Assembly: GCF_050920415.1 (NCBI RefSeq)
Contig: NZ_CP169309.1
DNA from: Escherichia coli
GTDB taxonomy: Bacteria; Pseudomonadota; Gammaproteobacteria; Enterobacterales; Enterobacteriaceae
Reading direction: 5' to 3' (one strand)
DNA: 64,000 bases
The first letter of the stretch is position 1; every line of letters begins with the position of its first letter. The notes below the pieces were generated by a model, which had not been told where the DNA came from, did not search any database, and saw only the letters and a program-made list of their open reading frames with translations. This document shows positions 23,475 to 23,850 of this stretch, one piece after another. Both the position numbers and the translations under genes were made by a program.

Positions 23475-23738
23475 AAGGAGTCCCTCCGCACTGTCTGAAA
23501 CAGTGCAGAAATGTCTTCAGGCGTGGCGAAGCCTTACCTGAAGGTAATAAAGCTGAGCTGGGACGTTAAAACGTCACGGCCTTACGCATCCGGTAACGCC
23601 GTGAAAAGACGGGCTTACCGGAAAAGTTTTAATCTCCGTCGAGGGAGAGGCGTGGGATCAGGTTCCATATAACCTCCGGTAAGTGAAAAAAGCGCCGCAA
23701 ATAATAAGGAGAATCCAATAATATTCGTGGCATTTATG
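23475..23738 (-). promoter_or_regulatory. mgtA 5' leader (Mg2+/proline-responsive leader containing mgtL)
   Basis: Long untranslated region between PhoP box and mgtA start, containing the proline-rich mgtL ORF. Confidence 0.75.
23615..23668 (-). CDS. mgtL: mgtA leader peptide
   Basis: 17-codon [20 protein letters not shown] read directly from the minus strand. Confidence 0.85.
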
Positions 23739-23761
23739 GCGATATAATACCTACTGGCAAC

Positions 23762-23778
23762 TAAACCAACGATAAACC
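23762..23778 (-). promoter_or_regulatory. PhoP box upstream of mgtA
   Basis: Minus-strand GGTTTA TCGTT GGTTTA direct repeat, matching the (T/G)GTTTA-N5-(T/G)GTTTA PhoP consensus. Confidence 0.75.
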
Positions 23779-23850
23779 AGACTTTACCCATTGCTGAATG
23801 CACGGGTAAAGTTAGGCTCAAATAATGAAACGCAATTACGGGACAACAGG

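Follow-up and report, generated by a model that had tools for sequence, protein, structure and literature searches.

The window analyzed here, which is the whole 64-kb stretch of Escherichia coli DNA, carries treR and mgtA as divergent genes, both of them intact, and the interval 23475..23850 corresponds to the entire intergenic gap between them, from the start codon of mgtA (23474, − strand) to that of treR (23851, + strand). This is exactly the interval in which the initial annotation had placed mgtL and a PhoP box, and both elements are found within it. The flanking genes and the main features of the gap, all of these on the strand of mgtA, are as follows:

23851..24798, + strand: treR, trehalose operon repressor, 315 aa, reading away from mgtA
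23474..20778, − strand: mgtA, Mg2+-importing P-type ATPase, 898 aa, intact
23778..23762, − strand: PhoP box GGTTTA-TCGTT-GGTTTA (GGTTTATCGTTGGTTTA), a direct repeat pointing to the −10 hexamer
23749..23744, − strand: putative −10 hexamer TATTAT, read from the sequence
23737..23475, − strand: 5′ leader RNA of mgtA, about 263 nt, with a predicted start
23668..23615, − strand: mgtL, 17 codons plus the stop codon, from its translation; ATG at 23668 and UAA at 23617..23615

The TreR ORF matched the NCBIfam equivalog TIGR02405 (TreR) with 587.7 bits, for a cut-off of 357, and contains the Pfam domains LacI and Peripla_BP_3. Likewise, the MgtA ORF matched the equivalog TIGR01524 (magnesium-translocating P-type ATPase) with 1602.7 bits, for a cut-off of 610.75, the full set of P-type ATPase Pfam domains was found in it, and mgtA has the same length as b4242 from strain K-12. 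A 501-nt query spanning the region found a match in 5,425 of 5,426 complete E. coli genomes, and the features annotated under these matches are mgtL, mgtA, and treR. Among them, the near-identical bovine strain EC42405 showed 100% identity over the complete query and equal local gene coordinates. The window and strain EC42405 are identical around mgtA but they are not base-for-base collinear over 50 kb, and the annotation of EC42405 was therefore applied only locally. Incidentally, three of the approximately 5,428 matches to treR-mgtL-mgtA in the E. coli genome collection were in plasmid-typed records, and the region was present twice in at least one of the genomes; these plasmid-typed or double copies may be either misassigned contigs or real duplications.

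Other features were seen elsewhere in the window. Between ridA and the stop codon of mgtA there is an ORF of 151 aa (20278..20733, + strand) annotated as 'transposase', which is convergent with mgtA and ends 44 nt from its stop codon. This ORF matched only HTH_Tnp_1 in Pfam, with no match in a search of NCBIfam, and looks like a lone remnant of an IS3-type OrfA; the 566-bp spacer at 20212..20777 was found in 442 of the 5,426 complete E. coli genomes, with at least 99% identity in 43 of them. In strain EC42405, an orphan antitoxin gene of the RelB/DinJ family is annotated directly after nrdG, at about 31176..31415, and these coordinates transfer to the window approximately, given the lack of collinearity of both strains over 50 kb. 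Additionally, the following Rfam families matched at gathering level:

5391..5585, − strand: Ysr276, 188 bits; going by the annotation of EC42405, apparently antisense within pepA
53794..53916, − strand: ES239 sRNA
49139..49196, + strand: STnc450
6421..6496, 33727..33804, and 39958..40034, all − strand: three copies of naRNA4 (REP-derived)

The PhoP box and the mgtA promoter

The initial annotation had reported a perfect GGTTTA-N5-GGTTTA PhoP box readable from the minus strand, and a scan of both strands of the 64 kb located this exact repeat once, at 23778..23762. Dinucleotide-preserving shuffles gave a chance expectation of 0.02 occurrences per 64 kb (2 of 100 shuffles contained one). The box fits the consensus (T/G)GTTTA-N5-(T/G)GTTTA at 12 of 12 positions, and a search with this consensus allowing for one mismatch retrieved just two further, unrelated sites, which is approximately the chance level. 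The PhoP box from the window is identical to that from K-12, and a 19-mer containing it (TGGTTTATCGTTGGTTTAG) shares 18 of 19 positions with the PhoP box of Salmonella mgtA (TGGTTTATCGTTGGTTTAA), which has been footprinted or tested by EMSA (PMC3335776). Each of the other six Escherichia loci compared (from E. coli, E. albertii, E. whittamii, and two Escherichia sp.) has the 17-mer of this box upstream of its mgtL, and in most of the other genera of Enterobacteriaceae the PhoP box differs in sequence but fits the consensus fully or nearly so.

The spacing from the PhoP box to the hexamer TATTAT is 12 nt (GTTGCCAGTAGG). PhoP-activated promoters of the so-called 'architecture I', which include that of Salmonella mgtA, contain a single direct box situated 12 nt upstream of the −10 and over the −35 position, and are of class II (PMC3335776). 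The arrangement in the window is the same, with a single direct box at 12 nt from the predicted −10 and overlapping the −35 position. A consensus scan of 23400..23950 on either strand did not reveal any sigma-70 −35/−10 pair, as expected from an activator-dependent class II promoter in which the PhoP box takes the place of the −35. The same interval was devoid, on either strand, of sequences fitting the intrinsic terminator consensus, which is consistent with a non-intrinsic mechanism of attenuation. From the position of the −10 and by analogy with the leader of Salmonella mgtA, which has 264 nt (PMC3335776), transcription probably starts near 23737/23738; the A at 23737, located 7 nt past the −10, would generate a leader of 263 nt, within 1 nt of that from Salmonella, with which the window also shares the 12-nt spacing from box to −10. 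The phoPQ genes are not encoded within the window.

The mgtL ORF and the predicted folds of the leader RNA

The 17-codon proline-rich leader ORF proposed by the initial annotation on the minus strand was also borne out, at 23668..23615, and its 54 nt are all identical to those of K-12 mgtL (b4702). Its deduced product contains Pro at positions 3, 5, 7, and 9, with an EPDP motif right after the initiator Met, and the ORF is annotated as mgtL (WP_001387276.1) in E. coli genomes. An ORF of 17 codons is not by itself beyond chance; judging by its sequence, this one is real, on account of its nucleotide identity to b4702, its annotation as mgtL, and its location in a full-length RF01056 context. 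The Shine-Dalgarno sequence of mgtL (GGAGG, 23677..23673) is within the 5′ arm of the predicted stem A (see below), whereas the 3′ arm of this stem contains the UAA codon, within the invariant sequence CCGGUAAG.

The leader RNA had been designated a known regulatory element, and it indeed matched the Rfam family RF01056 (Magnesium-II) at 23683..23568 (− strand), over model positions 1–115 of 115 and with 125.8 bits (E = 4.3e-27), which is three times the gathering score of 40. The match terminates 93 nt upstream of the ATG of mgtA. A search of the region against Rfam, on both strands and with E ≤ 1, returned no family other than RF01056, indicating that it does not hide any sRNA or antisense element from among the curated families.

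The folding of the leader, which the initial annotation had suggested examining, yielded a predicted structure clearly more stable than those of shuffled sequences: the MFE of the 263 nt was −92.5 kcal/mol, compared to −65.8 ± 5.0 for the shuffles (z = −5.3). The predicted elements of this structure, together with the alternative stem-loop, are listed here:

23683..23614, − strand: stem-loop A, 5′ arm CUUACCGGAGG and 3′ arm UUUCCGGUAAG, from the Rfam consensus structure and the MFE fold
23602..23576, − strand: stem-loop B, ACGGCGUUAC / GUAAGGCCGU, containing a single G·G mismatch, from the Rfam structure
23622..23589, − strand: alternative stem-loop C, UCCGGUAA..CCGU / ACGG..UUACCGGA, 12 pairs, −18.6 kcal/mol when folded alone
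23575..23562, − strand: small conserved hairpin GACGU-UUUA-ACGUC, directly 3′ of stem B
23509..23485, − strand: last of several distal hairpins, with a 3′ arm that overlaps the Shine-Dalgarno sequence of mgtA (GGAGGG, 23487..23482), from the helices of the MFE fold

Stem-loop A surrounds mgtL and two small hairpins, and its 3′ arm (UUUCCGGUAAG) includes the final codon of mgtL and its stop codon. In stem C, one arm of A (the 3′ one) is paired with one arm of B (the 5′ one), and this stem therefore excludes both A and B. Stems A and B constituted the MFE fold, with −38.8 kcal/mol. We then modelled a ribosome with a footprint of 28 nt on mgtL, in a crude approach that deals only with the equilibrium and ignores co-transcriptional folding and kinetics. 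With the P site on codons 2–4, where the footprint covers the 5′ arm of A, stem C became the MFE structure. A ribosome placed at the stop codon brought back stem B, and for P-site positions on codons 5–9 the equilibrium MFE retained stems A and B. Within the terms of this model, these results show that the leader encodes a predicted switch between stems A/B and stem C.

Variation within E. coli and across the Enterobacteriaceae

Gene order and orientation are the same in K-12 MG1655 (b4241, b4702, and b4242; NC_000913.3, 4467247..4467624) as in the window. Alignment of both leaders, also suggested by the initial annotation, brought no disqualifying divergence: they extend for 263 nt to the ATG of mgtA, without indels, and differ by four substitutions, at 23734 (A in the window, G in K-12), 23729 (C/U), 23559 (A/U), and 23505 (C/U). 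No difference between the two strains was seen in the PhoP box, the −10, mgtL, the three stems (A, B, and C), the Shine-Dalgarno sequences of mgtL and mgtA, or any part of the segment matched by Rfam. Disruption of any element by the substitutions was thus ruled out, as none of them is in mgtL, the PhoP hexamers, the −10, or the three stems. Those at 23729, in a 5′ hairpin, and 23505, in the hairpin over the Shine-Dalgarno sequence of mgtA, are predicted to change a U·G into a C-G pair. The latter hairpin has a predicted energy of −16.6 kcal/mol in the window vs. −14.6 in K-12, and the MFE of the whole leader is −92.5 vs. −87.3 kcal/mol.

Of 5,424 genomes, only 5 contained the 305-nt segment spanning the PhoP box and the leader (23475..23779, − strand) with 100% identity and 14 with at least 99%, and its identity was 95–99% in most of the others. 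Additionally, seven differences from K-12, including a 2-bp indel, are clustered in about 16 bp (ca. 23825..23840) just upstream of the ATG of treR, and the remaining intergenic region is about 98% identical. This cluster does not touch any defined functional element, and it may represent a variable patch in the 5′ UTR or the promoter of treR.

We also scanned 100,044 species-representative genomes with a DNA pattern of the first nine codons of mgtL, leaving third positions free, and retrieved 55 loci. Three of them, from Nonomuraea, Opitutaceae, and Actinacidiphila, were chance matches from unrelated phyla, lacking the short ORF, the PhoP box, and mgtA, and were left out. The other 52 were from Enterobacteriaceae, including Escherichia, Salmonella, Citrobacter, Enterobacter, Kosakonia, Leclercia, Atlantibacter, and Pseudocitrobacter, among others. 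In all 52 loci the mgtL ORF has 15–17 codons and terminates in Arg-UAA inside the invariant CCGGUAAG within stem A. Where identifiable, an mgtA-like ORF (MFKN.../MLKN...) is found downstream, usually at about 190–200 nt after the mgtL start codon, and most of the loci contain a consensus or near-consensus PhoP box 74–124 nt upstream of the ATG of mgtL. The conservation of the N-terminal part of MgtL is imposed by the search pattern, whereas the length of the ORF, the position of its stop, the linkage to mgtA, and the PhoP box are independent of it. The deduced peptide contains RWR in E. albertii, E. whittamii, and Escherichia sp. E1V33, and RRR in the E. coli loci. The mgtL of Salmonella enterica also has 17 codons and a P-x-P-T-P-L-P core, and belongs to the same Rfam family, although the Salmonella loci from the scan encode MDPEPTPLPRWR(V/I)FLFR, unlike MgtL from the window.

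Base pairing was evaluated in an alignment of 52 sequences, comprising the window and 51 distinct loci. For the A/B structure, 96.1% of the cells were paired and 10 pairs showed compensatory double changes; none of 500 shuffles reached these values, and sliding the partners reduced pairing to 40–47%. Most of the covariation resides in stem B, with 97.7% of cells paired and compensatory double changes in 6 of its 10 pairs. Stem A had 96.5% of cells paired and 7 of 11 pairs invariant, a near-invariance that derives from the same bases serving as Shine-Dalgarno, coding sequence, stem A, and stem C. In stem C, pairing was 88.6%, with the outer eight pairs nearly invariant and paired and the inner four poorly aligned; as it shares its bases with stems A and B and with the stop codon of mgtL, covariation cannot discriminate this stem. 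The hairpin at 23575..23562 showed compensatory changes in three of its five pairs across genera. At a position of stem B that is C-G in nearly all other Enterobacteriaceae, Escherichia, K-12 included, has a mismatch (G·G or A·G), as well as a compensatory change of U-A to G-C two pairs from it.

Proposed control of mgtA expression

As judged from these sequence features, the region is almost certainly the canonical control region of E. coli mgtA, with two layers composed of a PhoP-dependent promoter and of mgtL with the leader RNA. Its sequence elements are all found intact, conserved, and with the expected order and spacing, and no sequence feature speaks against this reading. Conserved control of mgtA by Mg2+ and PhoPQ, as postulated in the initial annotation, is supported by homology to characterised systems, and is suggested here by sequence conservation. 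For the binding of PhoP, the start site, the response to Mg2+ and proline, and the termination step, we infer the mechanism from the literature on homologous systems. In the first layer, low periplasmic Mg2+ would be sensed by PhoQ, leading phospho-PhoP to bind GGTTTA-N5-GGTTTA; this repeat is 12 nt upstream of TATTAT and overlaps the −35 position, and from it the regulator would activate a class II promoter that has no −35 of its own. In the second layer, translation of mgtL would choose between two mutually exclusive folds of the leader. When cytoplasmic Mg2+ (or proline, or charged tRNA-Pro) is sufficient, ribosomes would pass the EPDP motif and the Pro codons and reach the stop codon; as this codon is within the 3′ arm of stem A, ribosomes reaching it would let stems A and B form and the transcription or expression of mgtA would be shut off. 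Conversely, with low Mg2+ or proline, translation would abort or stall in the first codons, C would replace A plus B, and RNA polymerase would enter mgtA.

Chadani 2017, as cited in the bioRxiv paper considered below, reportedly dealt with mgtL translation and its control of mgtA, and with the destabilisation of ribosomes by the EPDP motif of MgtL. In K-12 and Salmonella, mgtL is translated and its translation controls mgtA; at low Mg2+, PhoQ/PhoP activate the transcription of mgtA and the leader takes the form of stem C, with stems A and B forming instead when Mg2+ is high (PMC11552253). Inefficient elongation over the Pro and acidic codons of mgtL at low Mg2+ results in high expression of mgtA, and efficient elongation at high Mg2+ leads to repression (PMC11552253). 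Within the first six residues of E. coli MgtL, the EPDP motif destabilises the ribosome intrinsically, an effect exaggerated by low Mg2+ as well as by the loss of ribosomal protein bL31 (bioRxiv 10.1101/2021.02.02.429294). The leader of Salmonella enterica also alternates stem-loops A/B and C, and the shut-off of mgtA is by Rho-dependent termination, which in E. coli is undetected and perhaps not conserved (PMC11552253; review, PMC12360218). Additionally, Escherichia differs from most other genera in the G·G (or A·G) mismatch of stem B, which is C-G in the latter.

The corA leader with the corL uORF, from E. coli and Salmonella, resembles that of mgtA in having the uORF inside stem A and an Mg2+-responsive attenuation, and its alternative folds are A/B and C/D (PMC11552253). 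Unlike mgtA, corA is at a separate locus and has a constitutive promoter without a PhoP box, and corL contains fewer Pro and acidic codons than mgtL and a UUG start codon. The Salmonella mgtCBR operon is similar to mgtA in its PhoP-activated promoter and its long leader, where translation of an uORF with Pro codons selects alternative stem-loops, but it differs by containing two uORFs (mgtM and mgtP) and by sensing ATP and proline. To our knowledge, the mgtCBR leader is absent from E. coli, and the element in the window is a different one. Mentions of this leader are found in PMC3335776 and PMC12360218.

It is a matter of debate if the RNA itself senses Mg2+ or if sensing occurs via the translation of mgtL (PMC11552253). 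The Rfam database classes RF01056 as a riboswitch, and the leader might mainly be a direct Mg2+-binding riboswitch, with mgtL translation being secondary, instead of a translation-coupled attenuator. This is reportedly the original model of Cromie 2006. It would agree with results in vitro from Salmonella, in which the Mg2+-dependent folding of the RNA is alone enough to modulate Rho termination (PMC11552253). Nevertheless, we deem it unlikely that this predominates, because regulation of mgtA 'primarily depends' on mgtL (PMC11552253) and the response is controlled by the Pro and acidic codons and by bL31 (PMC11552253; bioRxiv 10.1101/2021.02.02.429294); besides, the conservation in 52 of 52 loci of an ORF of 15–17 codons with R-UAA in stem A fits selection on translation plus RNA structure. 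Both mechanisms are, in any case, not mutually exclusive. A far more radical alternative, that both the short ORF and the repeated hexamer arose by chance in the intergenic region and are functionless, could draw on the ease with which 17-codon ORFs appear by chance and on the promoter scan, which gave no sigma-70 consensus; however, an activator-dependent class II promoter is expected to lack a −35. With a repeat expected only 0.02 times in 64 kb, an ORF nucleotide-identical to K-12 mgtL and located inside a 125.8-bit Rfam match, and an architecture maintained with compensatory changes at 52 loci in many genera, we consider this alternative refuted and virtually devoid of probability.

Having retained the two-layer control region as the preferred reading, a further question is whether the allele of this lineage, whose promoter plus leader is as rare as described above (5 of 5,424 genomes with full identity, 14 with at least 99%), has a shifted Mg2+ set-point for mgtA with respect to K-12. 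The two U·G-to-C-G changes, predicted to stabilise the 5′-terminal hairpin and that overlapping the Shine-Dalgarno sequence, would point in this direction. A shift is nonetheless quite improbable, as no substitution falls in mgtL, in the PhoP hexamers, in the −10, or in any of the three stems, and the structure is preserved, as expected of a neutral or mildly stabilising polymorphism; likewise, 2 kcal/mol in a predicted hairpin is in the range of ordinary allelic variation. If true, the difference in set-point would represent a natural variant tuning the riboregulator.

The use of Rho at the leader in E. coli, and the sensing of Mg2+ by the RNA or by the ribosome, are general questions of the field rather than of this window. 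The element described is an already known one, that is, the textbook mgtA promoter, mgtL, and Mg-sensor leader, which are intact and near-identical to those from K-12. Recognition from the raw sequence of a regulatory ORF of only 17 codons and of a transcription-factor site constitutes a positive control for the scan. For the biology of this strain, its sequence suggests that it retains the textbook elements for the two-layer control of mgtA by Mg2+, and the value of the finding lies in their correct annotation.
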